Shown here: piece by piece, positions 13,423 to 61,828 of the stretch
Layout of the letters: the number at the start of each line of letters is the position of its first letter
Position numbering within the stretch: the first letter of the stretch is position 1
Assembly (NCBI GenBank): GCA_050258555.1
Contig: JBLMZA010000094.1
Coordinates: forward strand, 19,563 to 83,562
Direction: 5' to 3'
Length of the DNA: 64,000 bases
Source: Acidobacteriota bacterium
GTDB lineage: Bacteria; Bacteroidota; Ignavibacteria; UBA10030; UBA8401
Notes under the pieces: model-generated
Database searches by the model: none
Told to the model about the DNA's origin: nothing
The model's input: only the letters and a program-made list of their open reading frames with translations
Made by a program: the position numbers and the translations under genes

Positions 13423-13453
13423 GGGCGCACGCCCCGCTGTGCTGCATATTGAA

Positions 13454-44252: not shown

Positions 44253-44541
44253 TGTCGTTCAATTAGTATGCCAAAGCGCGGAAGGACGCCGGCGCTCGTG
44301 AATTCACGGGAAATGCGCGGATCATCATCGGCACGCATGCCGTGATGTGTGTAAAAAGGAAGCAGCTTCGTGCGGCGCGTGTGTAGAATCGGGACAGACC
44401 GGGCCTGCGCACGGCGCCGAAAGCACGGAAGCCGGGCCGGAAATCTGTTTGGCACATTTCTTGAACAGCTTCAGTCATGTGCTTCAAGCCACCGCCATCG
44501 ATGTTTCTCTCACTCATGTGTTTTTTTAGAAAGGTGCGAGC

Positions 44542-45252
44542 GTGCAACAGTATCGACAGTCTCTGCGTACGGCAATCTTCATGCTTCTTCTGGCGCTGTT
44601 CCTGACCGGCTGCTTCAGCCGCAGCGCGGTGCAGGATGAAGCCCTGTTGAAGGCGAATCAATCGCAGTCCGCCAATATCCTCTCCGGCTCCTATGTGCTC
44701 AGGCAGGGAGACCAGGTGAAGCTCTGGGTGATCGAGTATCCCGAATTTGATACGACGGCCGTGATCAGCGAGACGGGCACGATTCCGGTGAAACTGCTCG
44801 GCGAGGTGCATCTGGAGGGATTGACCAAAAACGAGGCGATCGCCATGCTGCGCGAGCGCATCGGCGTCTATGCCCGCAGCCGCAGCCTGAGCCTGGGGAT
44901 GACCGTGCTGACCGGGACGAGCGCGAAGCTCGTCATTCTGGGCGCTGTGGCGCGACAAGATACATTCGCGCTCACATCTCCCATTTCGCTGCTTGAGGCG
45001 ATTGCCGCCTCGGGCGGCACGCAGCCCGATTCCGATCTCCGGCGCATCAAGGTCTTCCGGCGTGATTCGGATGCGGGCCCGGTCGAGGTCGATCTGACGC
45101 GCTATTTTGCCACGGGCAATATTCGGGAAGTGCCCACCATCGGTCCCGGCGACATTGTGTATGTGCCGCGGGAGGAGAATTTCATCCGCGAGTTTTCGGG
45201 ATATCTGCGCGATACGCTTTTCCTCTTCGGGTTATTTTCGATTTCGCGCTAG
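44542..45252 (+). CDS. short Wza-like outer-membrane polysaccharide export (OPX) lipoprotein lacking the C-terminal OM-spanning helix
   Basis: Lipobox LTGC. Poly_export motif YVLRQGDQVKLWV. SLBB-like segment PGDIVYVP. Only 236 aa (E. coli Wza is 379 aa). GTG start at 44542 with an AAAGG RBS. Confidence 0.7.
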   Translation: MQQYRQSLRTAIFMLLLALFLTGCFSRSAVQDEALLKANQSQSANILSGSYVLRQGDQVKLWVIEYPEFDTTAVISETGTIPVKLLGEVHLEGLTKNEAIAMLRERIGVYARSRSLSLGMTVLTGTSAKLVILGAVARQDTFALTSPISLLEAIAASGGTQPDSDLRRIKVFRRDSDAGPVEVDLTRYFATGNIREVPTIGPGDIVYVPREENFIREFSGYLRDTLFLFGLFSISR

Positions 45253-45285
45253 CGCGTGTGTATGCGGACGACAGGAGAACAATCA

Positions 45286-46236
45286 ATGTATTCGAAGCTC
45301 AGACCATTCATGCGACTGCGGTGTTCAATCAGACAGGCGGCAATGCTCCTGTGTATCTCATGGTGTGTAAATTTGCTCCATGCGCAGGAAGCCTCCGAGC
45401 TCTCATTCCGCTACGGGCTGGCGTCGGCGCGCAGCGTCGCGCTCGGAGAAGCCCTGGTGGCCGATACGCGCGATCTTTCAAGCGCGATCGCCAATCCCGC
45501 CAGTCTGCTCTTTCTGGAGCGCCTTTCGGTCTCCGCCACCGCCGGCATGAGGACCGATAACCGATCGCTGCGTTCGGCCGTCTCGATGCCGATAGCGGCC
45601 ACAGACCGCTTTGTGCTGGCCATTGGAGGCGAGGGGGCATTTTTCGATGCCGATGACTGGTCGGCGCAGAAAGGGAAGATGGCGGGCTTTGAAGCGTCCT
45701 CTGCCGTGCGGCTCTTCGGAGCATTCAGCTTCGGCATGATCTATGACTTCCGCTACACCGAATTCGGCGCCACGCGCCTTTCCAGCCACTCGGGCGGCAT
45801 GGGACTGATGTATTCGGTCCTTCCTGCGCTTTCCTACGGGGTTTCATTCACGGGATTCGGCTCGGGCATCCAATTGAAGCGCGCCGCGGACGGCGCTCCC
45901 TTCCTGGTGAAGGAATCGAATATCCCGCGCTCGGTCACATTCGGCGCGTCGTGGCGATATCCGGCCACGTATGGAAGGAAACTCGTTGAAGTGCATCTCT
46001 CGAACCAGAGCATCAGCGGGGTGGAGCGCCTGGTCTACCGCCTTGGCGCCGAATTTTTCCCGTGGAAATTTCTTGTCGTGCGCGGAGGCATCGTCTCCGG
46101 ACCCGTGACGGCCATGGGCCGCGCGGGCATCGGCATACACACGGGCGTCGTTGATATCGATTACGGTGTGGCCTCCAGCACGGCCGCCGAGCGTCTGCAT
46201 GTGCTGAGCATTGTTGTACCGCTGGAATTCCCTTGA
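45286..46236 (+). CDS. FadL/PorV-like outer-membrane beta-barrel protein (candidate polysaccharide-export porin)
   Basis: Signal peptide. The N-terminus ...ALGEALVADTRDLSSAIANPASLLF has a hatch-like NPA motif, and the sequence shows the amphipathic beta-strand pattern. It is a paralog of 12412..13422 (shared RAG..G..AG.GI...DY...H.LS..V C-terminus). The ATG at 45286 has a GGAGA RBS. Confidence 0.5.
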   Translation: MYSKLRPFMRLRCSIRQAAMLLCISWCVNLLHAQEASELSFRYGLASARSVALGEALVADTRDLSSAIANPASLLFLERLSVSATAGMRTDNRSLRSAVSMPIAATDRFVLAIGGEGAFFDADDWSAQKGKMAGFEASSAVRLFGAFSFGMIYDFRYTEFGATRLSSHSGGMGLMYSVLPALSYGVSFTGFGSGIQLKRAADGAPFLVKESNIPRSVTFGASWRYPATYGRKLVEVHLSNQSISGVERLVYRLGAEFFPWKFLVVRGGIVSGPVTAMGRAGIGIHTGVVDIDYGVASSTAAERLHVLSIVVPLEFP

Positions 46237-46275: not shown

Positions 46276-47070
46276 ATGGAATCCATACATTCAATCGTCG
46301 ATCAGGATCTTGATATCGTCCGCAGCGCCGCCATGCAGGAAGTGCTCAGGACGATGGAACGCATTGCAGCCAGCGACCTTTCCGTCATCATCGTCGGAGA
46401 ACAGGGAACAGGAAAGGAGTGGGCCGCGCGCTTCATTCACCGCATCAGCAGCCGCGCGCACGGACCGTTTTTGCCGTTCGATTGCGGTGCGCTCTCGGCC
46501 GAAGCGATGGAAAAGGAACTCTTCGGGTACGAGGCCGTCACGCGCGATGGCGTGATCTACCGGCGCGGCGCCTTGGAGGAAGCCGACGGCGGCACGCTGC
46601 TCGTCAATGAGCTCTCCTCGCTGCCCCTGCCGGCACAGATGAAGATGGCCCGCGCGCTCGAATACCAGACCATGACGCGCGTGGGGGGCGATGCGATCAT
46701 ACACATCCATACGCGCATCATCGGAACGCTCTCGCGCCACCCGGAAGCGCTCATGGAAGAAGGCGCGCTCATGAAGGACATGTATTACCGCATCAGTCCG
46801 ATCGTCATCGAACTGCCGGCCCTCAGGGACCGAAGAGAGGATATACCGCTTTTGATCAGAAAATTTTTGCGCGAACTGCGCACGCGCTACAATTCTCCGG
46901 TCGTGGGCATCGCGCCCGATGCCGCCGAGCTCTGCCAGGCCTACAACTGGCCCGGCAACATCCGGCATCTGAAAAATGCGATCGAATACGCCGCGGTGAT
47001 GTCGTCCGGAAAATGGATTGAAGCCGAGCATCTGCCGGCGTATCTGCGGCAGGCGAAAGACGGAGTTTAA
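46276..47070 (+). CDS. sigma-54-activator-like AAA+ protein, degenerate (no GAFTGA, Walker B D-to-N, no HTH, no receiver)
   Basis: Walker A GEQGTGKE. ELFGYEAVTRDG replaces ELFGHEKGAFTGA. GGTLLVNEL replaces GGTLFLDEI. PGNIRHL is retained. The protein ends at 264 aa with no Fis-type HTH. Confidence 0.6.
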   Translation: MESIHSIVDQDLDIVRSAAMQEVLRTMERIAASDLSVIIVGEQGTGKEWAARFIHRISSRAHGPFLPFDCGALSAEAMEKELFGYEAVTRDGVIYRRGALEEADGGTLLVNELSSLPLPAQMKMARALEYQTMTRVGGDAIIHIHTRIIGTLSRHPEALMEEGALMKDMYYRISPIVIELPALRDRREDIPLLIRKFLRELRTRYNSPVVGIAPDAAELCQAYNWPGNIRHLKNAIEYAAVMSSGKWIEAEHLPAYLRQAKDGV

Positions 47071-47106
47071 GAACATTCTAATCGAAATTAGAAACTTCTA
47101 ATTTGC
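47071..47106 (+). repeat. 36-bp AT-rich palindromic element, copy A (GAACATTCTAATCGAAATTAGAAACTTCTAATTTGC)
   Basis: Immediately after the stop of 46276..47070 and 172 nt upstream of the ATG at 47278. It contains the 18-bp perfect palindrome AATTAGAAACTTCTAATT. 34 of 36 positions match the reverse complement of copy B. Confidence 0.8.
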
Positions 47107-47130
47107 ATCGCCCGGGGAATTCGTCTAAGT

Positions 47131-47161
47131 TGGTGCTGTCGAAACATGTACGACAGCACCA
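47131..47161 (+). promoter_or_regulatory. perfect 11-bp inverted repeat TGGTGCTGTCG-N9-CGACAGCACCA (candidate operator/UAS)
   Basis: Arms at 47131-47141 and 47151-47161. It resembles the NtrC-type TGCACC/GGTGCA half-site logic. It lies 117 nt upstream of the wecA-like start. Confidence 0.4.
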
Positions 47162-47277
47162 TAGAGAATTCATGCGGCAGCGTCGGCAACCACCAGAAAG
47201 AGGCGACACGTCAAGGGCTTCTTTTTTTTCGCGTTCGGGGGGCGGGCTGTTGGTATCGTGTCAATGAGGAGGGTGTG

Positions 47278-49302
47278 ATGGTCATGCATTTGTTGATTGC
47301 CTTTGCGGCATCGGTTGTGATGTCGCTCGTGCTGACGCCGGCAGTGATGAAGCTTGCCTCGGCAGTCGGAGCGATGGATTATCCCAACGCGCGCAAGGTC
47401 CACACGACGGCGATGCCGAGGCTGGGCGGCGCCGCCATCTGCGCGAGCTTCTTCATTTCGTTTTTCGTGCTGGCGGTGATCGAGCCCGCGGTCTTCCTCG
47501 ACTCCTGGCTCTCGACGGCCGAAGGCATCTCGCTTGCCGCCGTGCTGCTTCTGGTGCTCTCGCTCGGCATCTGGGATGATATCGAGCCGCTCATGCCCTC
47601 GCAGAAATTCGTCGTGCAGCTGCTCTTGAGCACGATCATCTATCTGGCGGGATTCCGCATCTCCGTCATCAGCCTTCCTCTGGTGAGCGAGCCCGTGGCG
47701 GTCGGCTTCCTTGATTATCCGCTGACGATGATGTGGATGATCGGCATCACCAATGCCATCAATCTCATCGACGGGCTGGACGGCCTGGCCAGCGGCGTCT
47801 CCACCATCGCCTTTCTCACGGTCTTTCCCATTGCCATGTTCAATGGCGATATGGGCACCGCCTGCATGGCGCTTCTGCTTTCGGGCGCGCTTCTGGGCTT
47901 CCTGCGCTACAACTTCAATCCCGCGCGCATCTTCCTGGGCGACTCGGGAAGCCTCTTCCTGGGCTTTGCGCTGTCGGTGCTTTCCATACACAGTTCGACC
48001 AAGGGATCGGCCGCGTTCGCCATTGTCGTGCCGATTCTCGCGCTCGGACTGCCGATCATGGACACGTTCTTATCGATGGCGCGCCGGCTCCTGCGCTCGT
48101 TCCTTCCCGATCAGCCGAAGACCGAGTCGCTCGTGCATAAGCTGAAGTCGATGTTCCAGCCGGATAAAAGCCACATCCATCACCGCCTCATTGCGCGCGG
48201 ACTCTCGCACCGCAACGCCGTGCTGGTGCTCTACGCGATCTCGTGCGCGCTCGGACTGGGCGCCTTTTTGCTCACGGTCTCGAGCAGCCGCATTGCCGGC
48301 TTCGTGCTGGCGGCCGTCGGCGCCGCCACGGTGATCGGCGTGCGCCAGCTGCGCTACAAGGAGATGGCCGTGCTCCAGAACGGCGTCCTCCTTCCGCTCT
48401 ATGACAGGCCGATCATGAACCGGGAGGCGCTCCTGGTGTTTTTCGATGTGGCGTTCATCGTCGTCTCCTTCGGCGCTTCGAGCTATATTGCCGGAAAGCT
48501 CTATGCCATCCCGCAGTCCGACGCCGCGTTCATGGAACTGACGGCCGGCGTCACCATCGTGCAGCTGGCGATCTTCTGGGCCTCGGGCCTCTACCGCGGC
48601 ACATTCCGGCTCATCGGACTCGGCGATGTGCTCCGCACAATGAAAAGCACGTCGCTTGCCGCGCTTGGGACCGGCTTTGGCATCTGGATGCTGTCGGCGC
48701 CGCTGAGGGCCGATCAGGTGGTGATGCTGGTGCTCGATTTTTATTTCCTCATGACGTTCGTCGTGGGATTCCGCGTGTCGTTCCGCGTGCTGCAGTATCT
48801 GTCGCATCAGGATATCCGGGAAGGCCGCCATGTGCTGCTCTACGGCGCAGATCAGAGCGGCATCGTGACGCTCGAGCGGATTCTGGATTCGAATGCGACG
48901 ACCGATACGCCGATCGGATTTCTGGATGATGACACGACGCTCGAGGGCAAATCGCTCAACGGGTATCCGATCTTCGGAGGCCATTGGAAGCTCCCGTATC
49001 TCATGCGCACCATCGGCGTCGATGAGATCGTGCTGTGCTCCGATTCGATCAAGGAGGAGTCGCTCCGGCGGCTTCGCGCCGCGGCCGGAGAATACCGCAT
49101 TCCGATCAAGCGGCTTCGCATCCTGATCGAGGAATACCATGCCGAGGAGCGCAAAGGCGCGGTCGGGCAGACAGCCGCCATTGTGGTTGGTCCGGAGGCG
49201 GATGCGCGCGAGGACGAGGCGCATGCGGGCGTGACGGAGCAGCGGGTGCATCGGCTTGGAAAAGGCGTGAAGGTGCCGCACATGAAATCGAAATTCGCAT
49301 AG
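47278..49302 (+). CDS. polyprenyl-phosphate N-acetylhexosamine-1-phosphate transferase (WecA/MraY family) fused to a C-terminal 4TM + Rossmann-like (CoA_binding_3-type) module
   Basis: The WecA signatures NAINLIDGLDGLA and DKSHIHHRL are in the first ~350 aa. Four more transmembrane helices follow, then RHVLLYGADQSG...PIGFLDDD...GYPIFGG, which resembles the non-catalytic N-terminal module of WbaP/CapD-type proteins. The ATG at 47278 has a GGAGGG RBS. Confidence 0.65.
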   Translation: MVMHLLIAFAASVVMSLVLTPAVMKLASAVGAMDYPNARKVHTTAMPRLGGAAICASFFISFFVLAVIEPAVFLDSWLSTAEGISLAAVLLLVLSLGIWDDIEPLMPSQKFVVQLLLSTIIYLAGFRISVISLPLVSEPVAVGFLDYPLTMMWMIGITNAINLIDGLDGLASGVSTIAFLTVFPIAMFNGDMGTACMALLLSGALLGFLRYNFNPARIFLGDSGSLFLGFALSVLSIHSSTKGSAAFAIVVPILALGLPIMDTFLSMARRLLRSFLPDQPKTESLVHKLKSMFQPDKSHIHHRLIARGLSHRNAVLVLYAISCALGLGAFLLTVSSSRIAGFVLAAVGAATVIGVRQLRYKEMAVLQNGVLLPLYDRPIMNREALLVFFDVAFIVVSFGASSYIAGKLYAIPQSDAAFMELTAGVTIVQLAIFWASGLYRGTFRLIGLGDVLRTMKSTSLAALGTGFGIWMLSAPLRADQVVMLVLDFYFLMTFVVGFRVSFRVLQYLSHQDIREGRHVLLYGADQSGIVTLERILDSNATTDTPIGFLDDDTTLEGKSLNGYPIFGGHWKLPYLMRTIGVDEIVLCSDSIKEESLRRLRAAAGEYRIPIKRLRILIEEYHAEERKGAVGQTAAIVVGPEADAREDEAHAGVTEQRVHRLGKGVKVPHMKSKFA

Positions 49303-49303
49303 C

Positions 49304-51241
49304 ATGAACACCTTTAACACCATAGTGCTGCATGTGGCGGCCTTCTTTGCGCTGTGCGCGGCGCCGTTCGAGGTCTCCGCACAGGCACGCCCGATGTGGA
49401 TCACGGCCTATTATCCCTGGTGGTACTACAACCAGATGCCGGTCGAAGAGGTGGATTTCTCGCTCATGACGCATGTCGTGGTCTTCTCGGCCAATCCCTC
49501 GCGCACGCCGCCCTATCTTGACGTGCTTGTGAATGCACGCGACAGCGCCAATGTCGTCAACGGCGTCGACTGCGGACGTCCGGGCGATTATCTGCGGCAG
49601 CTTGTCCGGCGCGCGCACGAGAAGGGCGTCAAGGTCGTGCTCTCGGTGGGCGGCATCTGGGGGGAAGGCGCCGATGCCATGCATTACATCGCCGGCGATG
49701 ACGCGCGCATCGAGACATTCGTGCGCGCCTCGTGCGCGTTTGCCCGGCGCTGGAATCTGGACGGCATCGAACTCGACTGGGAATTTCCGCAGTTTGCCGA
49801 CAAGTGGCGCCACAACAAACTCATCTACCGCTTCCGCTCGGAACTCGATGGGTGGACTCCGCGCGGGATCTTCATCGCCGCCGTCCACGAGTCCCCGCTT
49901 CCGGCATACGACAAAAATGCGATGTGCGCGGCCTTCGACCAGATCAATCCGATGACCTATGAACTCTACCGGGGCGATTACTCCAAGAACCTCACCGGAT
50001 ACAACGGTCCCATCGAGCAGTCGTCGCGCTACGCGCCGTATATCGGCACCTCGATCAACCAGAAGGGACACGGTCCGCGCTCATGGATCGACGATGGCTA
50101 TCCGGCATCGAAGATCGGGCTGAGCGTCTCGTTTACGACGACCGTCTTCACGGGCGTCGAGCCTCCGGTCGAACCCTCGCGCCCCTACAAGGAACATCAA
50201 TGGGGCAATGTGCGCGACATTCCGCGGCGCGGCCGCCACTGGGATCACTCGTCACAGGTCCCATGGTTCGCCGACGGAACGACATTCATTTCCTATGAAG
50301 ACACGGCGAGCTCACGGCTCAAAGTCGAGTATGCCAGAGCGCTCGGTCTCGGCGGCGTCATGGTCTACGAACTCGGAGCGGGCTATCTTCCTTCCGAAAA
50401 ACCGGGCCGAAGGGACGTGCTGCTCCAGGCCGTTTCGCGCGCGGCACGCTCAACGACCCGGCCGCTCGGCGATCTCACGCCCAAGACCGCCGACCGCGAG
50501 GCGCCGAAGGTCTCGATCCTGTCTCCCAAAGACCGGGCGCGCGTCACCGGTCCGGTCACATTCAAAGCCGACGCGAAGGATAACCGCGGCGTTGCCGCGC
50601 TGCGTTTCTTCATAGACGGCGTCGCCTACGGATCCGTCTCTGAAGATGTGCCCGCGGTCTCGCCGCCTCTGAACACATGGAGACTCTCCAACGGCACGCA
50701 CACGATCCGCGCTGAGGCGGTCGATGATGCGAATAACAAGGGCAGTGCGCAGATCACGATCACAGTCGCCAATTCTGGCGCGCCGCCCTCGTTCGAGGAC
50801 CTCGTCGTGTATGACGAGAAACTCCGCGCTCCGTTTATCGATGCCTCCTGGGGCGTGAAGAATTCATTCGCCGATGTGTCGCATGCGCGGACGGGAAGCC
50901 GCGCCATCAAAGTCGAATACGGAGCGCACGGCGCGCTCTGGCTCCAGTATGGCGCCTGGGGAGAGGAACAGAAACTCTATCCGACCGACTATACCGAATT
51001 GGCGTTCGACGCCTTTCCTTCGGAATCGTTCACGCTCGAGATTGTCTTTTCCAACAACACGTCTGAGACGCTGAGGCTTGAAGCCGGAAAGTGGAATTCG
51101 TGCGCGGTGCCGGTCACGGGCTCCGGAGCGTTCACGAAATTCTACTTCCGGCGCGATCTTCCCGGCAGCGCGACCGTGTATTATGACAACATCCGGCTGA
51201 AAGCCGCTCAGCCGTTGACACATGCCGCACGGGGAAAATAA
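49304..51241 (+). CDS. secreted GH18-family protein with variant catalytic motif (DGIELDWE) plus Ig-like and C-terminal beta-sandwich domains
   Basis: Signal peptide. GH18 (beta/alpha)8 motifs SVGGIWG...LDGIELDWEFP...MTYELY. A Big-like segment follows, then a galactose-binding-like C-terminus. The start is 2 nt after the upstream stop. Confidence 0.7.
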   Translation: MNTFNTIVLHVAAFFALCAAPFEVSAQARPMWITAYYPWWYYNQMPVEEVDFSLMTHVVVFSANPSRTPPYLDVLVNARDSANVVNGVDCGRPGDYLRQLVRRAHEKGVKVVLSVGGIWGEGADAMHYIAGDDARIETFVRASCAFARRWNLDGIELDWEFPQFADKWRHNKLIYRFRSELDGWTPRGIFIAAVHESPLPAYDKNAMCAAFDQINPMTYELYRGDYSKNLTGYNGPIEQSSRYAPYIGTSINQKGHGPRSWIDDGYPASKIGLSVSFTTTVFTGVEPPVEPSRPYKEHQWGNVRDIPRRGRHWDHSSQVPWFADGTTFISYEDTASSRLKVEYARALGLGGVMVYELGAGYLPSEKPGRRDVLLQAVSRAARSTTRPLGDLTPKTADREAPKVSILSPKDRARVTGPVTFKADAKDNRGVAALRFFIDGVAYGSVSEDVPAVSPPLNTWRLSNGTHTIRAEAVDDANNKGSAQITITVANSGAPPSFEDLVVYDEKLRAPFIDASWGVKNSFADVSHARTGSRAIKVEYGAHGALWLQYGAWGEEQKLYPTDYTELAFDAFPSESFTLEIVFSNNTSETLRLEAGKWNSCAVPVTGSGAFTKFYFRRDLPGSATVYYDNIRLKAAQPLTHAARGK

Positions 51242-51263
51242 TCATGTTCAGAAAGGATATGCC

Positions 51264-53579
51264 GTGACAGTGTTGCGCCCCCGCGTTCTGACCCTGCTGA
51301 TGTGTACCCTCTGCCTGCTGCCGCAACCGGAGACGCTTTCGGCCGAGGGCAAATGGTTTACCACGTATTATTCGACCTGGTCGATGATGCCTTTGGGCAC
51401 ATCCGAACTCGCGCTGCCGCCGTGGGAAATCGACTGGACGGGGCTCACGCATGTCGTGCTCTTTGATAACGGCAATGTGACGAAGTCTCCGCCCTATTGG
51501 GCGTACATGTTCGGTCCGCCTCCGAAGCGTCCTTCGGATACGGAATCCGATTCGGTCTCGGTCGAGTTCAACGGCGTCGCTTTCCCCGGAAGCGGCGCGG
51601 TGCATTATATGGACTCGCTTGTGGCGATCGCGCACCGGCGCGGGGTGAAGGTCGTGATCACGATCCAGGCTGTGAATCCCGTCAACCTGAATTACGTCGC
51701 GGCGGATTCGCTCCGCACGGAAGTGTTCGTCAATACGGTCGCCTCCTGGGCCGAGCGCAAAGGCTTCGACGGCGTCGAGCTTGATTGGGAAGGGTGGGCT
51801 TCGCCGCTGCCTCCGGCCTCGACGGTGAACCGCTTTGTGCGCATGCTCTACCGGCGCATCCATTCGATGAAAACCCGATCGGGCGCGCCCGGGCTGATCA
51901 TGATTTCCGCCGGAAGCGGCCATGAGGACCTCTATGATCCGTCGCAGGACTTTATGGTCGACCAGTTCAACCTTCAGCTCTATGATTATTCCTATGCCTG
52001 GTATGCGAAGATCGGATCGAACGCCTCATGGTATCTGGCGCCGCTGCACAGAGGCACGGTCGATCCGACATTCGAGGGACAGGCCTACGACACGCGCGGC
52101 CCGCTGCAGTGGGTGGCGGCGGGACATGACGCGAAAAGGATCGGCCTCGGCGTTCCGATCTTCGGAACGATCCTCAGGAATGTGGACGGGCTCTTTCAGA
52201 AGATGGCGTCCGACGGCGATTACGGCAATGCGCACTATCAGACCGTGGAAGCGCTGAAGGAAATCGGCGGCGTCGAGGAATGGGATGATGCGCGCAAGGT
52301 GCATTCGATACGCGGCACGGCGCTGCGCTCGAACGGGCGCCCGGTCTATTATCAGTCGGACGGAGTGAATGCCGGACAAAAATTCTTTGCATCGGGCGAG
52401 ACGCCCATGAGCCTGCGCGAGAAGATCAGCTGGATGAACCAGAATAATTTCGGCGGCATCATGACGTATGAGTTCGTCTCGGACCTCGACTGGAGGCAGA
52501 CGCTCGCCTCGGGAAAACGGCATCCGCTGCACCGCGTGATCGCATCGTCGCTGAGTTCGGGACCGCAGCATGTTCCGCCCTCGGGCGTGATCGAGGCGCT
52601 TCCGGCGCATCTTCCGTCCTCGGGCGGCGAGGTGACGCTGAAGTGGAATTCCACTGATGCCGTCTCGGCTGCGATCGATCAGGGGGTGGGCGTTGTCGCA
52701 CTCAACGGGTCGCGCACCGTCAGCGTCACGCAGACGACGACGTTCACGCTCATGCTTGCCGGTGGCGCAGGCGCGTCTGCGCGTGCTAGCGCTGCCGTGA
52801 CCGTCAGTGCGCCTCCTCCGGTCGGCATGCTGCGCTGCGAGCCCGCCGCGCTTTCGGCGGGAGGCGGGAAGGTGACGCTCGTATGGACATCGACCGACGC
52901 CGTGCGGGCGTCGATCGATCACGGGATCGGCGACGTGGCGGTGAACGGATCTCTTTCCGTTTCCGTAAAGTCGTCGACCGACTTCACGCTCACGCTCGCG
53001 AATGCGGACGGCATGACGAGCCAATACCGCGCCTCGGTGCGTGTCGACACGATCGCCGTCCATACCGTCGGGCTTCTTCGCGGATGGAACATGATCTCCA
53101 GTTATGTGCTGCCGGACAGCGTGCAGCTCGCGCGCATCGGCATGGAGCTGGACAGCACACAGTGTGTGCTCAAGGACGGTCAAGGCGGCGTCTATTGGCC
53201 GCGCTATGCAATCAATACGCTCGGCTCCTGGGATCCGCGCAAAGGCTATCTTTTTTTTACGGAGACCGACCGCCAGCTGAAGCTGAGCGGGACGCTCATC
53301 GATCCGGTCTCGCATCCGCTGGCGCTCTCGCGCGGCATGAACATGGTGCCGTATCTGAAGAGAACTCCGATGGATGCGCTGTCAGCCTTCGGCATGCTCT
53401 CCGACTCTCTCATCATCGTTTCCGATATGCGCGGACGGCTCTATTGGCCGTCGAAGAAGATCTTCACGCTCGAGACGCTCATGCCGGGTGAGGCCTATCT
53501 TGTCTATGTCTCGGCGCCGGCCACGTTTATCTATCCGGAAGACGCGCTGCCTTCGGCATCGGTCGGGAGGGAGCGATAA
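51264..53579 (+). CDS. secreted GH18-family protein with variant catalytic motif (DGVELDWE), two tandem Ig-like repeats and a C-terminal domain
   Basis: GTG at 51264 with an AAAGGA RBS gives the signal peptide VTVLRPRVLTLLMCTLCLL. The protein repeats ...GGEVTLKWNSTDAVSAAIDQGVG...NGS.TVSV...TFTL (about aa 430-560). Confidence 0.7.
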   Translation: MTVLRPRVLTLLMCTLCLLPQPETLSAEGKWFTTYYSTWSMMPLGTSELALPPWEIDWTGLTHVVLFDNGNVTKSPPYWAYMFGPPPKRPSDTESDSVSVEFNGVAFPGSGAVHYMDSLVAIAHRRGVKVVITIQAVNPVNLNYVAADSLRTEVFVNTVASWAERKGFDGVELDWEGWASPLPPASTVNRFVRMLYRRIHSMKTRSGAPGLIMISAGSGHEDLYDPSQDFMVDQFNLQLYDYSYAWYAKIGSNASWYLAPLHRGTVDPTFEGQAYDTRGPLQWVAAGHDAKRIGLGVPIFGTILRNVDGLFQKMASDGDYGNAHYQTVEALKEIGGVEEWDDARKVHSIRGTALRSNGRPVYYQSDGVNAGQKFFASGETPMSLREKISWMNQNNFGGIMTYEFVSDLDWRQTLASGKRHPLHRVIASSLSSGPQHVPPSGVIEALPAHLPSSGGEVTLKWNSTDAVSAAIDQGVGVVALNGSRTVSVTQTTTFTLMLAGGAGASARASAAVTVSAPPPVGMLRCEPAALSAGGGKVTLVWTSTDAVRASIDHGIGDVAVNGSLSVSVKSSTDFTLTLANADGMTSQYRASVRVDTIAVHTVGLLRGWNMISSYVLPDSVQLARIGMELDSTQCVLKDGQGGVYWPRYAINTLGSWDPRKGYLFFTETDRQLKLSGTLIDPVSHPLALSRGMNMVPYLKRTPMDALSAFGMLSDSLIIVSDMRGRLYWPSKKIFTLETLMPGEAYLVYVSAPATFIYPEDALPSASVGRER

Positions 53580-53580
53580 G

Positions 53581-54615
53581 ATGAAGATGACTGTGCAGTT
53601 AATCGTGCTGGCCGCGGCGGCCGCGTTTTCCGGGGCGGAGGTCATCGCGCAGACGGCGCACTATTCCTTCGCGAAGAATACGGGACTCTATGCGACGGTG
53701 GCCATTCCTGCTTCGATCGCGCCCACATGCGACGGCATGCCGCTTGCGATCGGAGACGAGATCGGCGTCTTCACGGCATCGGGCGTCTGCGCCGGCGCGT
53801 CGGTCTGGACCGGTTTGAATATCGCGCTCAATGTCTGGCCGGACGACCCCTATACGCCGGCTGTCGACGGCATGCAGGCGGGGGAAGAGATGGCATACCG
53901 CATCTGGCGGAAGGGCTCCAATACGGAATACCCGATCGCGCAGGCTTCGTATCAATCGGGAGGCGGCGCGTTTTCGTTCAACGGATTGTATGTGCTGGCG
54001 TCGCTCGCGGCGTACTCCTCCGTGCTGCCGAATGCGCCCACGCTGCGTTCGCCCGCAGACGGGGCGACGGGCGTGCCGCTCACGGCGGTGCTCCAATGGG
54101 ATGCGGTCGATGGCGCGACGGAGTATCTCGTGCATCTTTCAGCAGACTCGGCCTTTGCATCGCTGCTCGATCCGGCTATCGTGTCTGAGACGCAGAAGCG
54201 CACGCCGCCGCTTCAATCCGGATCCACGTATTACTGGCGCGTAAGAAGCGGAAATATGGCCGGTGTGAGCGCATTTTCAGGCACCTTCAGGTTTTCAACG
54301 CTGACGGTGACCGGACTCTCGGACGAGGATCGGGCGACGAGGCGTCAGGCACGCGAATTCCGGCTCGAGCAGAATTATCCCAATCCCTTCAATCCGGAAA
54401 CGCAGATCGCGTTTTCCCTTCCGCGGAGCGTGCAGGCGAAGCTTTCCATTTATGACGTGCTGGGGCGCGAAGTGGCGGTGCTCATCGATGCGCGGCTCGA
54501 TGCGGGATGGTATACGATCGGGTGGAATGCCTCCGGGCGCGCAAGCGGGGTCTACCTCTGCAGGCTCCGCGCCGGCACATACACCTCCGTGCGCATGATG
54601 ATGCTCGCGCGGTAG
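53581..54615 (+). CDS. secreted FN3-like protein with T9SS C-terminal sorting domain
   Basis: The ATG at 53581 has a GGGAGGGAG RBS. Signal peptide. The FN3-like segment is PNAPTLRSPADGATGVP...YYWRVRS. The C-terminus FRLEQNYPNPFNPETQIAFSLP...GVYLCRL...MMMLAR is Por_Secre_tail-like. Confidence 0.6.
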   Translation: MKMTVQLIVLAAAAAFSGAEVIAQTAHYSFAKNTGLYATVAIPASIAPTCDGMPLAIGDEIGVFTASGVCAGASVWTGLNIALNVWPDDPYTPAVDGMQAGEEMAYRIWRKGSNTEYPIAQASYQSGGGAFSFNGLYVLASLAAYSSVLPNAPTLRSPADGATGVPLTAVLQWDAVDGATEYLVHLSADSAFASLLDPAIVSETQKRTPPLQSGSTYYWRVRSGNMAGVSAFSGTFRFSTLTVTGLSDEDRATRRQAREFRLEQNYPNPFNPETQIAFSLPRSVQAKLSIYDVLGREVAVLIDARLDAGWYTIGWNASGRASGVYLCRLRAGTYTSVRMMMLAR

Positions 54616-54653
54616 CCCCTTCCGTTGCAGCGCGGCTCTTTCCCGGCGCACGC

Positions 54654-55691
54654 TCAGGAAATATTGAGCGCGTTCAGTTTGTTGTGCAGCGTCTTGCGGC
54701 TGATGCCGAGAATCTTGGCTGCGGCCGATTTGTTCTGCTCGACCGAAGCGAGCGTCTGATTGATCACGATGCGCTCCACGGTTTCAAGCGATGTGCCCAG
54801 GGGGATCGAGACGGTGAGCGGCCGCGGCTTGTTCTTCGAGATGCGCTCGGGCAGGTGCCGGATGGAAATCATGCGTTCGGGGCACATGAGCACGAGTCCT
54901 TCGATGAGGTTGCGCAGTTCGCGCACATTGCCCGGCCAGTCGAAGTTCGAGAGCATCTCCATCGCCTCGGGAGCGATGCTCTTGCGCGGCTGCTCGTATT
55001 TTTTGCCGAAGTAGGAAAGGAAGTGATTGGCAAGCAGCGGCACATCTTCCCTGCGGGCGCGAAGGGGCGGCACCACCAGTTCGATCACGCTCAGACGGTA
55101 GAAGAGGTCCTCCCTGAATTCGCCCGCTTCGATCGCCCTGGGGATATCCTTATTGGTGGCGGCCACGACACGCACATCGACCGTGACTTCCTCTTTGCCG
55201 CCGAGGCGCCGGAAGGCCTTGGTCTCGATGGCGCGCAGGAGCTTCGCCTGCGTCTGCGGATGCATCTCGGCGATCTCATCGAGAAAGAGCGTGCCGCCGT
55301 CGGCAAGCTCGAAGCATCCGGATTTCTTTGAGATGGCGCCTGTGAAGGCTTCCTTCTCATGGCCGAAGAGCTCGTTGTCGATCACGTCCTTGGGAAGCGC
55401 TGCGGCGTTGATGGCGATAAAGGGGGCGCCGGCCCGGTTGCTGGCGGCATGGATGTACTGGGCGATCACTTCCTTGCCCGAGCCGCTTTCGCCCGTGACG
55501 AGCACCGATGCCGGCGAGTTGGCGATCAGTTCGATTGTCGAGATCATGTCGCGGATCACCGGGCTTTCCGAGAGGAACACGGGCAGTGAACGATCGGAAG
55601 CCGGGACGCCCTGCGCCTGGCGCGTGGCGGAGAGCTCGTGATGCATCATGGGAGCGCCTTTCCGCATTTGAAGAGGTGATTGTGCACTCAT
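54654..55691 (-). CDS. sigma-54-dependent transcriptional activator (AAA+ plus Fis-type HTH, no N-terminal sensory/receiver domain)
   Basis: GESGSGKE, ELFGHEKEAFTGA, GGTLFLDEIAEM and GNVRELRN are all present. The C-terminal HTH is AAKILGISRKTLHNKL. The start was taken as the ATG at 55691; the track start at 55712 is TTG. Confidence 0.8.
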   Translation of the reverse strand: MSAQSPLQMRKGAPMMHHELSATRQAQGVPASDRSLPVFLSESPVIRDMISTIELIANSPASVLVTGESGSGKEVIAQYIHAASNRAGAPFIAINAAALPKDVIDNELFGHEKEAFTGAISKKSGCFELADGGTLFLDEIAEMHPQTQAKLLRAIETKAFRRLGGKEEVTVDVRVVAATNKDIPRAIEAGEFREDLFYRLSVIELVVPPLRARREDVPLLANHFLSYFGKKYEQPRKSIAPEAMEMLSNFDWPGNVRELRNLIEGLVLMCPERMISIRHLPERISKNKPRPLTVSIPLGTSLETVERIVINQTLASVEQNKSAAAKILGISRKTLHNKLNALNIS

Positions 55692-55761
55692 ATATCCGGA
55701 ACCTGGTTTCAAGAAACATGTGTATACGGCGCGCGCTGCTCGGCCCTGTGAACGACGGCTC

Positions 55762-56496
55762 TTAGTGATCCATCGCCTCGGTATGCTCGCGCTGTATGGA
55801 TTTGATCTTGTTCTGCATTTCCTCTTCGATTGTGCGCGTATCCCCTGCTCTCTTGAAGCGTTCCACCATCACATTCGACAACTCGATGAGAGACCTGCTG
55901 ACTAAAGAAATGAGATTGTATTCCTGTTTCAGTTCGCTGTTGGCTTTCTCCAGATAGGCTCTGCCTTCTTCATTGCTGATGAAGCCCTGGAGCTCGTGCG
56001 TGCGCTCGTCGATGTTGAGCGAGATGACCGAAAGGTTCGTGTTGACGATGTGCGCAATCGATGTGACCGTATCGCGCAGCATCTCCAGCGAGGGGATCTG
56101 CCTGTCCTTCTCCCTGCGAAAGAGCGAGCGCTCATAGACGCCCTCGATCACCACCGGCAAGTGGGCTTCGCTGAAGGAATCCTTGCGCACGTAATCGTAG
56201 GCGCCGAGCGTGAGCGCCTCGAGCGCCGATGCTTCCATCTCCGGGCGGTTCACCAGAAGCACCACGGGCACATCGGCCATGCGCTCCTGCATCCACTCGA
56301 AGAGGCTCATGCCGTTGCCGGCGGCCATGGAGTGATCCAGAAGCACGACATCGGCGTGCGTCTCCGGCAGCAGTGCGAGCGCTTCGGCGCCCGACGTGCA
56401 GAGCTCGACACGGTAACCCTTGGTTGTGAGTGCGTGCTGACAGTGCCGGCGAAACTCTTCGTCGTCATCGATCAGCAGCACATGGAGTGACGGCAT
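55762..56496 (-). CDS. response regulator: receiver domain plus uncharacterized ~110-aa C-terminal helical domain
   Basis: Receiver: HVLLIDDDEEF...DVVLLDHSM...VVLLVN...KDSF. No recognised output domain can be identified in the C-terminal part. Confidence 0.65.
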   Translation of the reverse strand: MPSLHVLLIDDDEEFRRHCQHALTTKGYRVELCTSGAEALALLPETHADVVLLDHSMAAGNGMSLFEWMQERMADVPVVLLVNRPEMEASALEALTLGAYDYVRKDSFSEAHLPVVIEGVYERSLFRREKDRQIPSLEMLRDTVTSIAHIVNTNLSVISLNIDERTHELQGFISNEEGRAYLEKANSELKQEYNLISLVSRSLIELSNVMVERFKRAGDTRTIEEEMQNKIKSIQREHTEAMDH

Positions 56497-56546
56497 CCAG
56501 TATTCCCTTTATCTACATGAAATGATAACGAGAATCGGACGGCCAG

Positions 56547-56582
56547 GCAAATTAGAAGTTTCTAATTTGAATTAGAATGTTC
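56547..56582 (-). repeat. 36-bp AT-rich palindromic element, copy B (reverse complement of copy A with 2 mismatches)
   Basis: On the plus strand it reads GCAAATTAGAAGTTTCTAATTTGAATTAGAATGTTC. It lies 51-86 nt upstream of the RR gene start at 56496, in the same orientation relative to that gene as copy A is to the wecA-like gene. Confidence 0.8.
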
Positions 56583-56603
56583 TAAACATGAAGAGGGGAA
56601 GGG

Positions 56604-59600
56604 TCAGAGCGCGTCCGTGGAAAGCGGACAATCGAGCGGAAGCAGAATGCGGAATGTCGTGCCCTTGCCGGGCACGCTTTCAACCGAGATCGAACCCTGA
56701 TGGAGTTCAACGATCCATTTCACGAGCGTGAGTCCGAGTCCGATGCCGTCCGTCTTGTACTGGTCGGAGCCGGCACGGTAATAGGGATCGAAGATGCGGG
56801 CGAGTTTTTCGGGCGGAATGCCTTCTCCGGTATCCTCGAAATACAGCCGCGCCGTCGCTGCCTCGAGCGTATAGCCGAAGCGGATCTGCCGGTGCGCCGG
56901 CGTGTGCTTCAGCGCGTTATCCAGGAGATTGAAGAGCACCTGGCGCAGACGCGGCACATCGGCCATGATGAAGGCCTTCGGGCACTTCCGAAGGACGATC
57001 GTGATGTCCTTCGGGCGCGTCAGAAAGAGCGCTTCGTCGTAGAATTCCTGCATGATCGTATGGAGCGCGGTGCGCGCCGGACGGAGTTCGAACGAGCCGG
57101 CCTGCATTTTGCTCAGATTCAGCAGGTCTCCCACAATGTTCGTGAGGTTGAGCATTTCGTCGTAGACCGAGGCGATCGTCTGGCGGAGCTTCTTGGGCGG
57201 CGTGCCCTGCGTGAGCGTCTCTTCGAGCTGGTTGCGGATCACCGCCAGCGGCGTTCGGAGCTCGTGTGCGGCAAGCGTCGAAAATTTCAGCGCGTTGTTC
57301 ATCGATGTGCGCAGCGCCTCTTCGGCTTCCTTGCGCTTCTTGATCGAGCGCACGCTGACAAAGAAATATTCCACATCGCCGAATTCCATGCGGTTGATTG
57401 TGGCTTCGACCGGGATGTGCTCGCCGCTTTTGGTGCGCTGCACGGTGTCGAAGTTCAGCGCGTTTTCGCCGCAGGCCTCGCAGGCGCGCCATTGCTCCCA
57501 GAGATGCTCGATGGAGGCGCCGGGCTCGATGTCGCCGAGCGAGAGCGAAAGGAATTCTTCGCGCGTATAGTCCAGCTGACGGCAGGCGGCGTGGTTGACG
57601 TAGACGAACGAACCCGTGTTGCTGATCCAGAAGACCGAATCGGAGGAGTGATCGACCGAGAACTGCGTCAATTGCAGCGAATGCTCCGTGCGCTTGCGCT
57701 CGGTGATGTCCTGCAGGATGCCCTCGTAATGTGTCACTTCCCCGGTCGAGTTGCGGATGATATTGGTGCGGTTGTTGACCCAGCGCGTCTCGCCCGTCTT
57801 GCACAGGATGCGGAAGTCGCCGCTCACGTGGTAGTGACCGAGCGAGGTATGCTTCGAGACCGTATCGAGCACGGCCTTCACGTCCTTCGGATGGATGATC
57901 GAGAGAAAGCTGATGGCGCCGCCCATGAGTTCGCTTTGCGTGTAGCCGAAGATCGTGATGTTGTTCGACACGTATTCGACCGCGAAGTCGCGCGACGGAT
58001 TCCAGATGAAGATCACCGTATTCGTGTTCTCGATGACGAGATTGGCGCGGCGCATCTGCTCGATCGAACGCCGGCGTTCGGTATTGTCGCGGTTGACGCC
58101 CACAAGGCCGATGATGGCGCCCGAGGCGTCATGAAGGGGATATTTGGAAATCAGGATCGAGCGCTGGATGAGCCCGGTCTCCGGATGATACCGGTTGATT
58201 TCGACGTTCAAGAGCGGAATGCCGGTGGCGATGATCTTCTGCTCCTCGCGCAGGTGCTGCTCGGCCAGGGGCGTCTTGAAGAGATCGACGTCCGTCTTGC
58301 CCAGGATGTCGTCGACCGAATGCACGCCGCACATCCTGAGCGCCGTCTTATTGGCAAGGATCATCCGGCAGTCGCGGTCCTTCACATAGACCTCGTCCGG
58401 AATGGCTTCGATGATCGTGCGCAAGAGATTGCGCTCCCGGTAGAGCGCCTCTTCGGCTTTCTTGCGCTCGGTGATGTCGAAGGCGACGCCGAGCGTGCCG
58501 ATCGTGCGCGCCTGCTTATCCCTGAGGGGCTCGACGTGCGCTTCAAAGGTCCGGCCGTTGATCGTGACGTCGTAATTGAGGCTCTCGCCCTGCAGCGCCC
58601 GGCGGTGCGCCGCAATGGGGGGATAGTTCGGGTCGCTCGTGTTGAAGAATTCCTGGATGGCAAGGCCGTCCAGCTGATGGGGCTCGACGCCGATGGTGCG
58701 GAAGCCGACCCCCTGCATCGATGTGAAGCGCAGATCCAGATCCGTCGTCCACAATTGCGCGGGCATCTGCGTGACCACGAGCCGGTAGCGCTCCTCGCTC
58801 TGGCGCAGCGCATCCTCGGCGCGCTTCTTCTCCGTGATGTCGCGCATGATGACGGTGAAATAGCGCCGCCCCTCGGCGATCGTCTTCGAGACCGAGGCCT
58901 CGAAGGGGAATTCTTCGCCCGTGGCGCGCAGCGCGCGCGCCTTGGTCATCATGCCGTTGAAGTGCTGAAATTCGTCGCCGAGCGCATCGAAGGCGCGTAT
59001 GTAGCCGTCGTGCTTCTCGCGCAGCGGGGCGGGAATGAAGCGGTTGATCGACTGGCCGATCACCTCCTGCGCGCTGCACTTGAAGATGTGCTCGGCCGAC
59101 TGATTGAAGAGCACGATGCGCTGCTGTTCATCGATCGTGATGATGGCGTCCATGGCCGAGGCGATGACGCTCGAGAGCTGCGCCTGGCTCCGGTGCATCC
59201 GCTCCTCGGCCTCATGCTTCGCGGTGATGTCGCGCGATCCGACGACGGCGCCGATCGTGTCGCCCCTCATCCCGGCGATGCGGCTGATATTGCACTCGAG
59301 CCAGATCTGGCGCCCGGAGCGGCTGCGGAAGCGCACTTCGACGGTGACGCGCTTTCCCTCGGTGAGTGCGCGCGCAAGCGCGGGCTTCAGGCGCTCGACG
59401 TCCTCCGGATGCACGAACTCATAGGCGCTTCGGCCCAGAAGCTCCGATACTTCGTAGCCGAGCACGGCGGTGTGCGAGGGACTCACGTAGCGGAACGTGC
59501 AGTCCGGGTCGACCTCCCCGACCATATCGAGCATGCTTTCGGTGATCAGGCGCAGCCGGCGCTCGCTCTCCTTGAGCCGGCGCTCCATGCCGTGCTTGTA

Positions 59601-60002: not shown

Positions 60003-61133
60003 TCAGCGGACCGGAATCATGATCCGGTAGGCCGTGCCCGAGCCGGATGGCCCGCACTCGAGGGTGATCGAGGCGCCGAGCTGCTGACCGAGCATCGAGA
60101 TGAGCTGCAGGCCGAGCGTTTCGGCCCGATCGAGCCTGGTGCCCTCCGGCATGCCGCATCCGTCGTCGCTGATGCAGAGTGTGACGCTCCCGCCTTCCGG
60201 TGTCTGCCCGGCGCTGAGGTGAATCGTCCCCGGCCTCTCGCCGGAGAATGCATGCTTGAGCGAATTGGTGACGATCTCGTTGATGAGCAGGCCGAGATGA
60301 ATCATGACGTCGATGTCGAGCGTGATCTCGCCCAGCTCGTGCGTGAAGCGCACGTTGTTTGCCCGGGGGCCAAGCGAGCCGATCAGATGGCCGATGAGCG
60401 TGACAAGGTAATCCGGAACGTCGATGCGCGCGAGGCCTTTCGACTGATAGAGCTTCTCGTGTATGAGCGCCATGCTCTTGATGCGGTTCTTCGATTCGCG
60501 GAAGATCTTCGCCACCGATTCGTCATGGATGTGGTGCGCCTGAAGCCCGAGCATGCTCGAGATGAGCTGGAGGTTGTTCTTGACGCGGTGATGAATCTCC
60601 TTGATGAGCGTCTCTTTTTCGCGGAGCGAGGCGCGGAAGAAGGCTTCCATGCGCACGCGCTCGGTGATGTCGTGCGCGTTGACGATGATGCCCTGCAATC
60701 CCGGATCGGTCAGACAATTGGTGACGGTGCCTTCCATGTGCTGATAGCGCCCGTCCATGCGCCGGATCCGGAACTCGCGGTGGATCGTGGCGCCGGGCCG
60801 CTCAAGGAACATGGCGATCGAGCGCAGGACGCGCTTCCGGTCGGAGGGATGGAGGAATGAGCGGAAGTTCTTCCCGATGATGTCCTTGAGCTCGTAGTCG
60901 AGCACGCGCTCCCATGCGGGACTGCAGTACTCGATGTCGCCCCGCCGGTTCATCACCGCGATCACGTCGCTGGCATGTTCGATCAGGCTCCGGAAATGGC
61001 GCTCGCTGATTTTCAGGCTGCGGCACTCGATCTCGAGCTGCGCGACTTTCGCCTGCAGCGCGGCGGCCGACTGATAGAGATCGGGCAGCGCGGAGGCCGG
61101 GGACGGATGTATCGTCGTGCGGATCTCCATCAT
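60003..61133 (-). CDS. sensor histidine kinase, PAS-PAS-HisKA_2-HATPase_c (HWE/HisKA_2-type H-box)
   Basis: H-box EIHHRVKNNLQLISSML. HATPase: LLINEIVTNSLKHAF...DDGCGMPEG...LGLQLISML. 4-nt overlap with the upstream OmpR-family gene. Confidence 0.75.
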   Translation of the reverse strand: MMEIRTTIHPSPASALPDLYQSAAALQAKVAQLEIECRSLKISERHFRSLIEHASDVIAVMNRRGDIEYCSPAWERVLDYELKDIIGKNFRSFLHPSDRKRVLRSIAMFLERPGATIHREFRIRRMDGRYQHMEGTVTNCLTDPGLQGIIVNAHDITERVRMEAFFRASLREKETLIKEIHHRVKNNLQLISSMLGLQAHHIHDESVAKIFRESKNRIKSMALIHEKLYQSKGLARIDVPDYLVTLIGHLIGSLGPRANNVRFTHELGEITLDIDVMIHLGLLINEIVTNSLKHAFSGERPGTIHLSAGQTPEGGSVTLCISDDGCGMPEGTRLDRAETLGLQLISMLGQQLGASITLECGPSGSGTAYRIMIPVR

Positions 61134-61828
61134 TCCTCTTTGATGATGAAGCCTTCGCCGCGGACCGTGTGAATTAACTTCTTGGAAAAGTCCTTGTCGA
61201 TCGAATCGCGCAGATAGCTCATATACACATCGACGATGTTGGTGCCGGTTTCAAACTTGTAGCCCCAGACCTGCTCGGCGATGCGCTTGCGGGTCAGGAT
61301 CGTGTTCTTGTTGCGCAGGAAAAATTCGAGAAGCGCAAACTCCGTCTGCGTCAGCGAGATGACCTTGTCGCTGCGCTTGACGACGCGCTTGATCACATCC
61401 ATGGTCAGATCGCCGGCCTGGAGGATGTTCGTCCTCAAGAGGCCCGAGCGGCGGAGGATCGCCTGTATGCGCGCAAAGAGCTCGCCCGAATCGAACGGCT
61501 TCGTGAGGTAGTCGTCGGCGCCGATTTCGAGTCCCTGAATGCGGTCGTCGATGCCGTCGCGCGCCGAGAGAATCAGCACGGGCGTCGTATAGGATTGCGC
61601 GCGCAGCTCGCGCAGCACTTCCAGCCCCGATTTCTGCGGAAGGTTCAGATCGAGCAGCACCAGATGGAATTCCCGCGAGGTGATCATCTGCGATGCCGTC
61701 ACGCCGTCAAATGCAAGGTCCACATCGTAGCCCGCACGCACCAGCTGCCGTTCCACCGAGCGGGCGAGCCGCTTTTCGTCTTCAACCAGCAGGATGGAAA
61801 TATTCAGTTTTGTCGGTGTGTTTGCCAT
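61130..61828 (-). CDS. OmpR/PhoB-family response regulator (receiver plus winged-helix DNA-binding domain)
   Basis: ILLVEDE...LVLLDLNLP...LILSARD...YLTKPF in the receiver. LTQTEFALLEFFLRN...VWGY...VDVYMSYLRDSIDK is the Trans_reg_C domain. Confidence 0.85.
   Translation of the reverse strand: MANTPTKLNISILLVEDEKRLARSVERQLVRAGYDVDLAFDGVTASQMITSREFHLVLLDLNLPQKSGLEVLRELRAQSYTTPVLILSARDGIDDRIQGLEIGADDYLTKPFDSGELFARIQAILRRSGLLRTNILQAGDLTMDVIKRVVKRSDKVISLTQTEFALLEFFLRNKNTILTRKRIAEQVWGYKFETGTNIVDVYMSYLRDSIDKDFSKKLIHTVRGEGFIIKEE

Follow-up and report, generated by a model that had tools for sequence, protein, structure and literature searches.

A conserved tandem-palindrome promoter module before two convergent operons, with an OmpR-family response regulator as its candidate binder

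The window analysed here is the whole 64-kb stretch of contig JBLMZA010000094.1, and its subject is a 36-bp AT-rich element that is present in it twice, in inverted orientation, on the two sides of a 9.5-kb block of genes. Direct reading of the window places copy A at 47071-47106 and copy B at 56547-56582, and the reverse complement of one matches the other at 34 of 36 positions, as reported in the first-pass annotation of this DNA. Both differences (CG in copy A, TC in copy B) are confined to a 6-nt spacer inside the element. In a repeat search the pair (47067-47112 / 56541-56586) reached 46 nt at 89% identity and was the top inverted repeat of the window. The 36-mer has a GC content of 28% compared to about 60% for the window, in agreement with its earlier description as an AT-rich island. 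Its recurrence beyond chance was also borne out, as the 18-mer described as its palindromic core was found at up to 3 mismatches in the two copies only, with 0.01 occurrences expected from 100 shuffles, and as the window has six TTCTAAT heptamers, every one of them within the two copies.

The internal anatomy of the element had to be redrawn. The element had been described as a perfect 18-bp palindrome with a third half-site, but the 18-mer consists of 8+8 bases around a central dinucleotide that is not palindromic (2 mismatches in an opposite-strand search). The GTTTA[A]G similarity next to the 36-mer had been correctly noticed and taken for mere flank; it is a fourth half-site, so that each copy holds two full 14-bp palindromes TTAGAA-NN-TTCTAA. 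These palindromes, referred to below as boxes, lie in tandem at 20 bp centre to centre, which corresponds to two helical turns. In both copies the proximal palindrome is directly followed on its 3' side by TTTG, then by a 20-nt spacer and a TAnnnTnn box. The upstream AAA+ gene ends with its TAA stop codon in the first half-site of the copy A distal box. The features of the two copies are the following:

47068..47081, + strand: copy A distal box TAAGAAcaTTCTAA, 1 mismatch compared with TTAGAAnnTTCTAA, predicted centre at about -62.5
47088..47101, + strand: copy A proximal box TTAGAAacTTCTAA, predicted centre at about -42.5
47102..47105, + strand: copy A TTTG, putative -33 element, invariant in 6/6 close copies (TTTG in 17/22 of the sites aligned below)
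47126..47133, + strand: copy A putative -7-like box TAAGTTGG, exactly 20 nt past TTTG
56572..56585, - strand: copy B distal box TTAGAAcaTTCTAA, perfect
56552..56565, - strand: copy B proximal box TTAGAAacTTCTAA, perfect
56548..56551, - strand: copy B TTTG, -33-like
56520..56527, - strand: copy B putative -7-like box TATCATTT, in a TTG-N20-TATCATT layout

Copies A and B have the same orientation relative to the genes behind them: each stands before the leading gene of an operon, as previously stated, and the two operons converge within a polysaccharide gene cluster. All genes between 45.2 and 61.8 kb were assigned by Pfam/NCBIfam (regulators, kinases, GT4, GH18, cargo of the type IX secretion system (T9SS), PorV-like). 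Those of the operons and their immediate surroundings, where HTH stands for helix-turn-helix, are:

46276-47070, + strand: AAA+ sigma-54-activator-like core, without receiver, HTH and GAFTGA loop
47278-49302, + strand: WecA-like GT4 fused to CoA_binding_3, first gene behind copy A
49304-51241, + strand: GH18, copy A operon
51222-53579, + strand: GH18, copy A operon
53374-54615, + strand: T9SS-sorted protein (T9SS sorting domain), end of the copy A operon (47278..54615)
54654-55649, - strand: sigma-54 activator with AAA+, EAFTGA, Walker B FLDE and HTH_8, no receiver, second gene behind copy B
55762-56496, - strand: 244-aa response regulator with NtrC1-like receiver and two-helix hairpin, first gene behind copy B
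56604-59963, - strand: hybrid histidine kinase (REC, 5 PAS, HisKA, HATPase), ending 18 nt before the copy B distal box
60003-61133, - strand: PAS + HisKA_2 histidine kinase, its start overlapping the stop of the OmpR-type regulator gene
61130-61828, - strand: OmpR/PhoB-family response regulator, CusR/CopR-like (heavy-metal), the proposed binder, located outside the interval first flagged
62224-62568, divergent to the OmpR-type regulator gene: CI/XRE-like protein

Both copies had been said to adjoin genes of the bacterial enhancer-binding protein (bEBP) type. This holds for copy A, as the AAA+ gene ends at 47070, but not for copy B, where the gene of the 244-aa regulator intervenes.

Three relatives of the locus (L007, L010 and L011) were found via homologues of the 244-aa regulator with 60-66% identity, and about 10 kb per side were inspected around them. 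The gene order is kept in all three, with kinase, regulator and bEBP genes followed by the convergent T9SS-cargo, GH18, GH18 and GT4 genes, and the counterpart of the AAA+-only gene (46276-47070) is also kept in L007. The proteins of the locus are 44-81% identical to those of the window, and at third codon positions the most conserved gene shows only about 59% identity. Both orthologous intergenic positions of L007, L010 and L011 carry the boxes almost unchanged between flanks that cannot be aligned. The invariant columns of the six-way alignment read T.AGA...TTCTAA...A.ATTAG....TTCTAATTTG, followed by GA.T and TA at fixed distances. Judged from this alignment, the element is conserved under selection and constitutes a classical phylogenetic footprint. 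It is almost certainly a cis-regulatory promoter module, and the earlier suggestion of a cis-regulatory site that would co-regulate both operons stands in this respect.

The two near-identical inverted copies that bracket a gene block had also been read as terminal inverted repeats of a mobile or invertible 9.5-kb segment. The conservation of the locus speaks against this, as relatives of 44-80% protein identity retain both elements and the order of the genes, the orientation and order are unchanged in L001-L005, L007, L010 and L011, and five contigs, each from a different sequencing run, share one and the same kinase/box/regulator junction. Neither in the block nor beside it is there a gene for a transposase, integrase or invertase, and the absence of a recombinase or transposase already reported was found again for the genes of the bracketed block and their neighbours. 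No direct repeats flank the pair, whose outer flanks read ...ACGGAGT and CATGAAG..., the element occurs singly before unrelated operons in other genomes, and the wider collections described below gave no viral match and one chance-like match among 185,579 species genomes. We regard a mobile segment as extremely improbable. The locus displays ordinary gene regulation, and the orientation of the copies is inverted because two convergent operons each have the same promoter module.

A scan of the JGI metagenomes with a pattern of 21 invariant bases matched 9 metagenome contigs. In L012, L014/L020 and L019 a distant homologue of the receiver/hairpin regulator is encoded behind the element, in L019 with a bEBP gene following the regulator gene, and L015 has a 52%-identical GT4 gene there. 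Three contigs of 40% GC (L016-L018) have the element in fully symmetric form upstream of an OmpR-type regulator gene, which is followed by a kinase gene in L016 and L017. L017 also has OEP and CusB-like HlyD genes and, from reading of the start of an open reading frame, the same operon encodes an RND-type pump as well. When the sites from the motif scan were combined with those from the regulator-protein loci presented below, 22 promoter sites were aligned, yielding the consensus TTAGAAnnTTCTAAtnnAnATTAGAaanTTCTAATTTG, in which TA stands exactly 20 nt past TTTG in 18 of the 22. Literature searches on the motif returned no description of it, the half-site matches being primers only (PMC3646045). 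A scan of one genome per species (185,579 genomes) with a 22-base pattern gave a single chance-like match, L006, in a Bacilli metagenome-assembled genome (MAG) of 26% GC, and a scan of a viral collection gave no match to the element. The species-genome collection evidently holds no relative of the source species with the exact motif. The same half-site layout upstream of a gene was seen in L006 (1045-1071) and in a 1-kb contig of 30% GC (L013, 833-862); these two layouts probably reflect chance in AT-rich DNA, or an unrelated operator.

Bacteroidota housekeeping promoters have TTTG at -33 and TAnnTTTG at -7, about 19-21 nt apart. Because TTTG and TAnnnTnn follow this layout, they are read here as a predicted Bacteroidota-type -33/-7 promoter, and the box centres would therefore fall near -42.5 and -62.5, which are the usual positions for activators that touch RNA polymerase. 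The sequence TTG-N20-TATCATT occurs three times in the window, compared to 0.47 expected, and all three occurrences are intergenic and face a gene:

13449-13479, + strand: TTG-N20-TATCATT in front of a gene
56520-56550, - strand: TTG-N20-TATCATT in copy B
61916-61946, - strand: TTG-N20-TATCATT in front of the OmpR-type regulator gene

This layout is likely to be a strong housekeeping-promoter consensus of this organism.

The same register bears on a second explanation, in which the boxes are upstream activating sequences (UAS) of the local sigma-54 activator (54654-55649, HTH_8), which would regulate its own operon and the GT4/GH18 operon through sigma-54 promoters. The activator is intact (EAFTGA, Walker B FLDE, HTH_8) and encoded in the copy B operon, its HTH is identical in the window, L007, L010 and L011, and two dyads 20 bp apart resemble tandem enhancer sites of the NtrC/DctD type; L019, with its receiver-regulator gene and bEBP gene behind the boxes, fits as well. 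However, the layout is not that of a sigma-54 enhancer, because the boxes are directly joined to a predicted promoter of the sigma-A -33/-7 type and are not followed by a -24/-12 element. No TGGCAC-N5-TTGC-like element (TGGCACNNNNNTTGCW) was detected at up to 2 mismatches in 47.0-47.3 or 56.4-56.6 kb, the copy B module lies only 50 nt from the start codon, and the boxes stand in an invariant register with TTTG-N20-TA instead of preceding a -24/-12 site by 80-150 bp. Inspection also led us to reject a sigma-54 promoter within the element, with TTGC as the -12 part, as there is no GG at the required distance. Moreover, tblastn on the fetched DNA found the bEBP in L007, L010, L011 and L019 only, and none in L014, L016, L017 and L021-L024. 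We therefore consider it unlikely that the boxes are bound by the local sigma-54 activator.

The OmpR-type regulator (61130-61828) is the protein that we favour as binder. No other protein of the locus is as conserved, its identity being 95% in L007 and 93% in L010 and that of its neighbours 44 to 79%. Its best NCBIfam match is TIGR01387 (heavy-metal subfamily), its closest solved relative is DrrD, a canonical OmpR/PhoB-family protein, and many of its 70-75% identical homologues are labelled CusR by JGI. The recognition helix GTN[IL][VI]DVY[MI][SN]YLR is kept down to homologues of 45% identity (L016 and L017). Wherever the flank of a locus found by motif was long enough, a homologue of the regulator was present next to the boxes, namely in L007, L010, L014, L016 and L017. 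In the reverse direction, six homologues with 65-90% identity were looked up by protein, of which four (L021-L024, 65-73%) came with DNA and two (P0020 and P0058) with gene tables only, used for gene order. All four loci with DNA carry boxes about 2-6 kb from the regulator gene, where shuffles gave at most 0.2 per locus, and in L021-L023 the boxes lie directly upstream of REC-hairpin regulator genes. The homologue is thus present in 7/7 of L014, L016, L017 and L021-L024, and the OmpR-type gene is the only regulator gene found beside all box-bearing loci with enough flank. In L016 and L017 the boxes precede a regulator/kinase/OEP/CusB-like operon in which the OmpR-type protein is the sole regulator in view.

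Other binders were also considered, namely the CI/XRE-like protein (62224-62568), the receiver/hairpin protein acting through an unusual contact with DNA, or a global factor whose gene lies elsewhere, since palindromic 14-mers fit any dimeric HTH protein. The CI-like gene and that of the OmpR-type regulator diverge, and L007 has a counterpart of the CI-like protein with 75% identity. The CI-like protein has no Pfam match, and it was rejected as binder because L007 alone among the fetched loci has a counterpart, L010 and every other box-bearing locus lacking it. Receiver/hairpin regulator genes are the commonest genes directly 3' of boxes, as autoregulation would predict. Yet the protein is predicted to be without HTH and is missing from the box-bearing L016, L017 and L024. 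Its predicted structure (mean pLDDT 76.7) consists of a receiver and, behind it, two long helices (residues 110-170 and 176-243), and a fold search with this model matched receiver domains alone, closest the NtrC1 receiver, with no HTH or DNA-binding fold; it was rejected as binder on these grounds. We consider binding by one of these other proteins improbable, to much the same degree as binding by the sigma-54 activator. Hence, of the binders named at the outset, the bEBP and the CI-like protein are not favoured, as both are missing from box-bearing loci.

Within the receiver/hairpin family (55762-56496 and paralogues in L014, L019 and L021-L023) a SIAH(I/V)VN motif is conserved, with its His kept in most members, and the hairpin is possibly a DHp/Spo0B-like phosphotransfer or partner-switch domain. 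The relatives have 1-3 copies of such genes beside the OmpR-type regulator/kinase pair, usually behind a TTAGAAnnTTCTAA box.

We assign the boxes to the OmpR-type regulator because of its conservation, the co-occurrence seen in both directions, the kept recognition helix and a box geometry that matches the subfamily, as the 22 sites have TTAGAA-NN-TTCTAA with AAA/TTT flanks as an inverted repeat of the 6-nn-6 type. Taken together, it is probable that this regulator binds the boxes near -42.5 and -62.5 and co-activates the two operons. Several points weigh against this assignment, which is guilt by association. On the protein side, the TIGR01387 match reaches 223.7 bits, below the cutoff of 279.2, the neighbours of the regulator in the window are polysaccharide and not metal-efflux genes, and its own promoter in the window is without a box, unlike the classical autoregulated cusRS. 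On the promoter side, the -7 boxes TATCATTT and TAAGTTGG match the Bacteroides TAnnTTTG consensus only partly, and the cus-like loci have a perfect TATCTTTG at a distance of 23-24 nt from TTTG instead of 20 nt. Sigma-54 enhancer sites, too, are typically tandem dyads spaced by two turns, and a bEBP may lie beyond the roughly 10 kb per side inspected in the relatives. The local sigma-54 activator likewise has an HTH that is 100% conserved among the four close relatives, so that conservation within the clade cannot separate it from the OmpR-type regulator.

The boxes can be compared with sites of known regulators. The E. coli CusR box AAAATGACAAnnTTGTCATTTT and the Pseudomonas CusR/CopR/CzcR palindrome ATTCATnnATGTAAT are experimentally defined 6-nn-6 sites with A/T flanks (PMC11195947). 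The element shares with CusR/CopR boxes the 6-nn-6 inverted repeat and the A/T-rich flanks (here AAATTAGAAnnTTCTAATTT), and with the Pseudomonas site the outer ...TAAT ending of the half-site. Both are found in promoter regions beside an OmpR-family regulator gene, with the heavy-metal subfamily as the best family match here, one site type serves two operons in both, and in L016-L018 the boxes lie between divergent genes, before a cus-like regulator/kinase/efflux operon. By contrast, the core half-site is TTAGAA here but TGACAA or ATTCAT in the known boxes, and the boxes here form a tandem pair 20 bp apart that is fused to a -33 element. In the window the target genes are those for polysaccharide functions and for regulators, and instead of metal sensors the kinases are cytoplasmic PAS proteins; control of metal-efflux/resistance genes was not found in the window, and only in L016 and L017, with 45%-identical homologues and OEP and CusB-like HlyD genes. 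The regulator scores below the subfamily cutoff and its binding is a prediction. The element is like a CusR/CopR box with PhoB-like positioning at -35, and is not a demonstrated member of a cus/cop regulon.

PhoB-type class II placement lets a bound winged-helix regulator contact RNA polymerase. As in PhoB class II activation, the sites directly precede the -35 region of a housekeeping-sigma promoter or take its place, and multiple sites are in helical phase. Pho boxes are direct repeats bound head-to-tail, whereas the half-sites here are inverted, as in the CusR/CopR group, and the promoter is of the Bacteroidota -33/-7 type. With the NtrC/DctD UAS the element has in common tandem dyad-symmetric sites in helical phase beside sigma-54 activator genes; it differs by the lack of a -24/-12 element downstream, by a distance of zero to the promoter elements compared to 80-150 bp, and by the presence of boxes in loci without a bEBP.

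In the mechanism that we propose, signals at the adjacent PAS kinases would lead to phosphorylation of the OmpR-type regulator, for which the kinase encoded at 60003..61133 is a candidate cognate kinase. The phosphorylated regulator would bind the tandem boxes as two dimers, at about -42.5 and -62.5, and recruit RNA polymerase, as PhoB- and CusR-type activators do, for sigma-A transcription of both operons. From copy B, this would produce the receiver/coiled-coil (hairpin) regulator and the receiver-less sigma-54 activator, a pair that resembles a split NtrC1; from copy A, it would produce the WecA-like GT4, two GH18 enzymes and a T9SS cargo protein. As the same module stands before both, the REC/sigma-54-activator and GT4/GH18/T9SS-cargo operons would therefore be switched on together.

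Two sigma-54-like promoters face outward between the Wzz/GNVR and Wza-like genes upstream of copy A. They and the remaining genes of this region are:

42005-42826, - strand: CbiA/AAA_31 (ParA-type) ATPase
42843-44252, - strand: Wzz/GNVR chain-length protein
44273-44258, - strand: sigma-54-like promoter TGGCAT-N5-TTGAA in the divergent wzz/wza intergenic region
44450-44465, + strand: sigma-54-like promoter TGGCAC-N5-TTGAA in the divergent wzz/wza intergenic region
44542-45252, + strand: Wza-like exporter
45256-46236, + strand: PorV/PorQ-like protein, weak match

These promoters are plausible targets of the bEBP encoded at 54654-55649, and the copy B sigma-54 activator would probably act on these -24/-12-like promoters, extending the scheme to an exopolysaccharide cascade; this second, sigma-54 tier is speculative. 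Tentatively, and with more doubt than confidence, one may picture a CusR-like regulator, detached from metal efflux, at the head of a conserved three-tier cascade in uncultivated Ignavibacteria/Bacteroidota-like bacteria. Tandem TTAGAAnnTTCTAA boxes would control a split NtrC-like pair (the receiver/coiled-coil protein with its invariant His and the receiver-less AAA+/HTH activator, adjoined by the GAFTGA-less paralogue), which would act on the sigma-54 promoters of wza/wzz and thereby on a GlcNAc-based exopolysaccharide and T9SS cargo. If this cascade is true, the motif would allow reconstruction of the regulon across a poorly known group.

An apparent structural oddity, inverted repeats around 9.5 kb, thus becomes readable regulatory logic. 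As judged from sequence comparison, it is a previously undescribed candidate operator/regulator pair of an uncultivated lineage; it is mechanistically ordinary and reveals no new kind of mechanism. With the pair, a lineage that is known from metagenomes alone gains a precise motif and a candidate regulator, the regulon and promoter type of these organisms can be predicted from the consensus TTAGAAnnTTCTAA-N6-TTAGAAnnTTCTAATTTG-N20-TA, and the CusR-like regulator family would be linked to exopolysaccharide and T9SS genes.

The AAA+ paralogue encoded at 46276-47070 has AVTRDGV in place of the GAFTGA loop and LLVNE as Walker B, with a D to N change. As L007 has a counterpart of 78% identity, the paralogue is probably functional, as a partner that does not activate or as a decoy, and not a decaying pseudogene. 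It is treated here as a neighbour only.

Behind copy A, the GT4 operon has a perfect 10-bp inverted repeat (GGTGCTGTCG-N9-CGACAGCACC, 47132-47160, + strand) that overlaps both its predicted -7 box and its predicted start site. The repeat has no counterpart in L007 and could be a second operator or a 5' hairpin. A riboswitch or attenuator in the 158-nt copy A leader was dropped because an Rfam search of the leader gave no match and its RNA folding was no better than that of shuffles (z = -0.77).

A 56-nt direct repeat of 80% identity (9874-9929 / 54364-54419) has its second copy in the T9SS sorting-domain part of the 53374-54615 gene, and probably reflects conservation of this domain at the protein level in two cargo genes. 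The source MAG is labelled Acidobacteriota at NCBI and its closest relative Bacteroidota. The T9SS C-terminal sorting domains, the PorV-like protein and the Bacteroidota-type promoter elements make the genome look like a member of the Bacteroidota/FCB group, and the NCBI phylum label looks doubtful.

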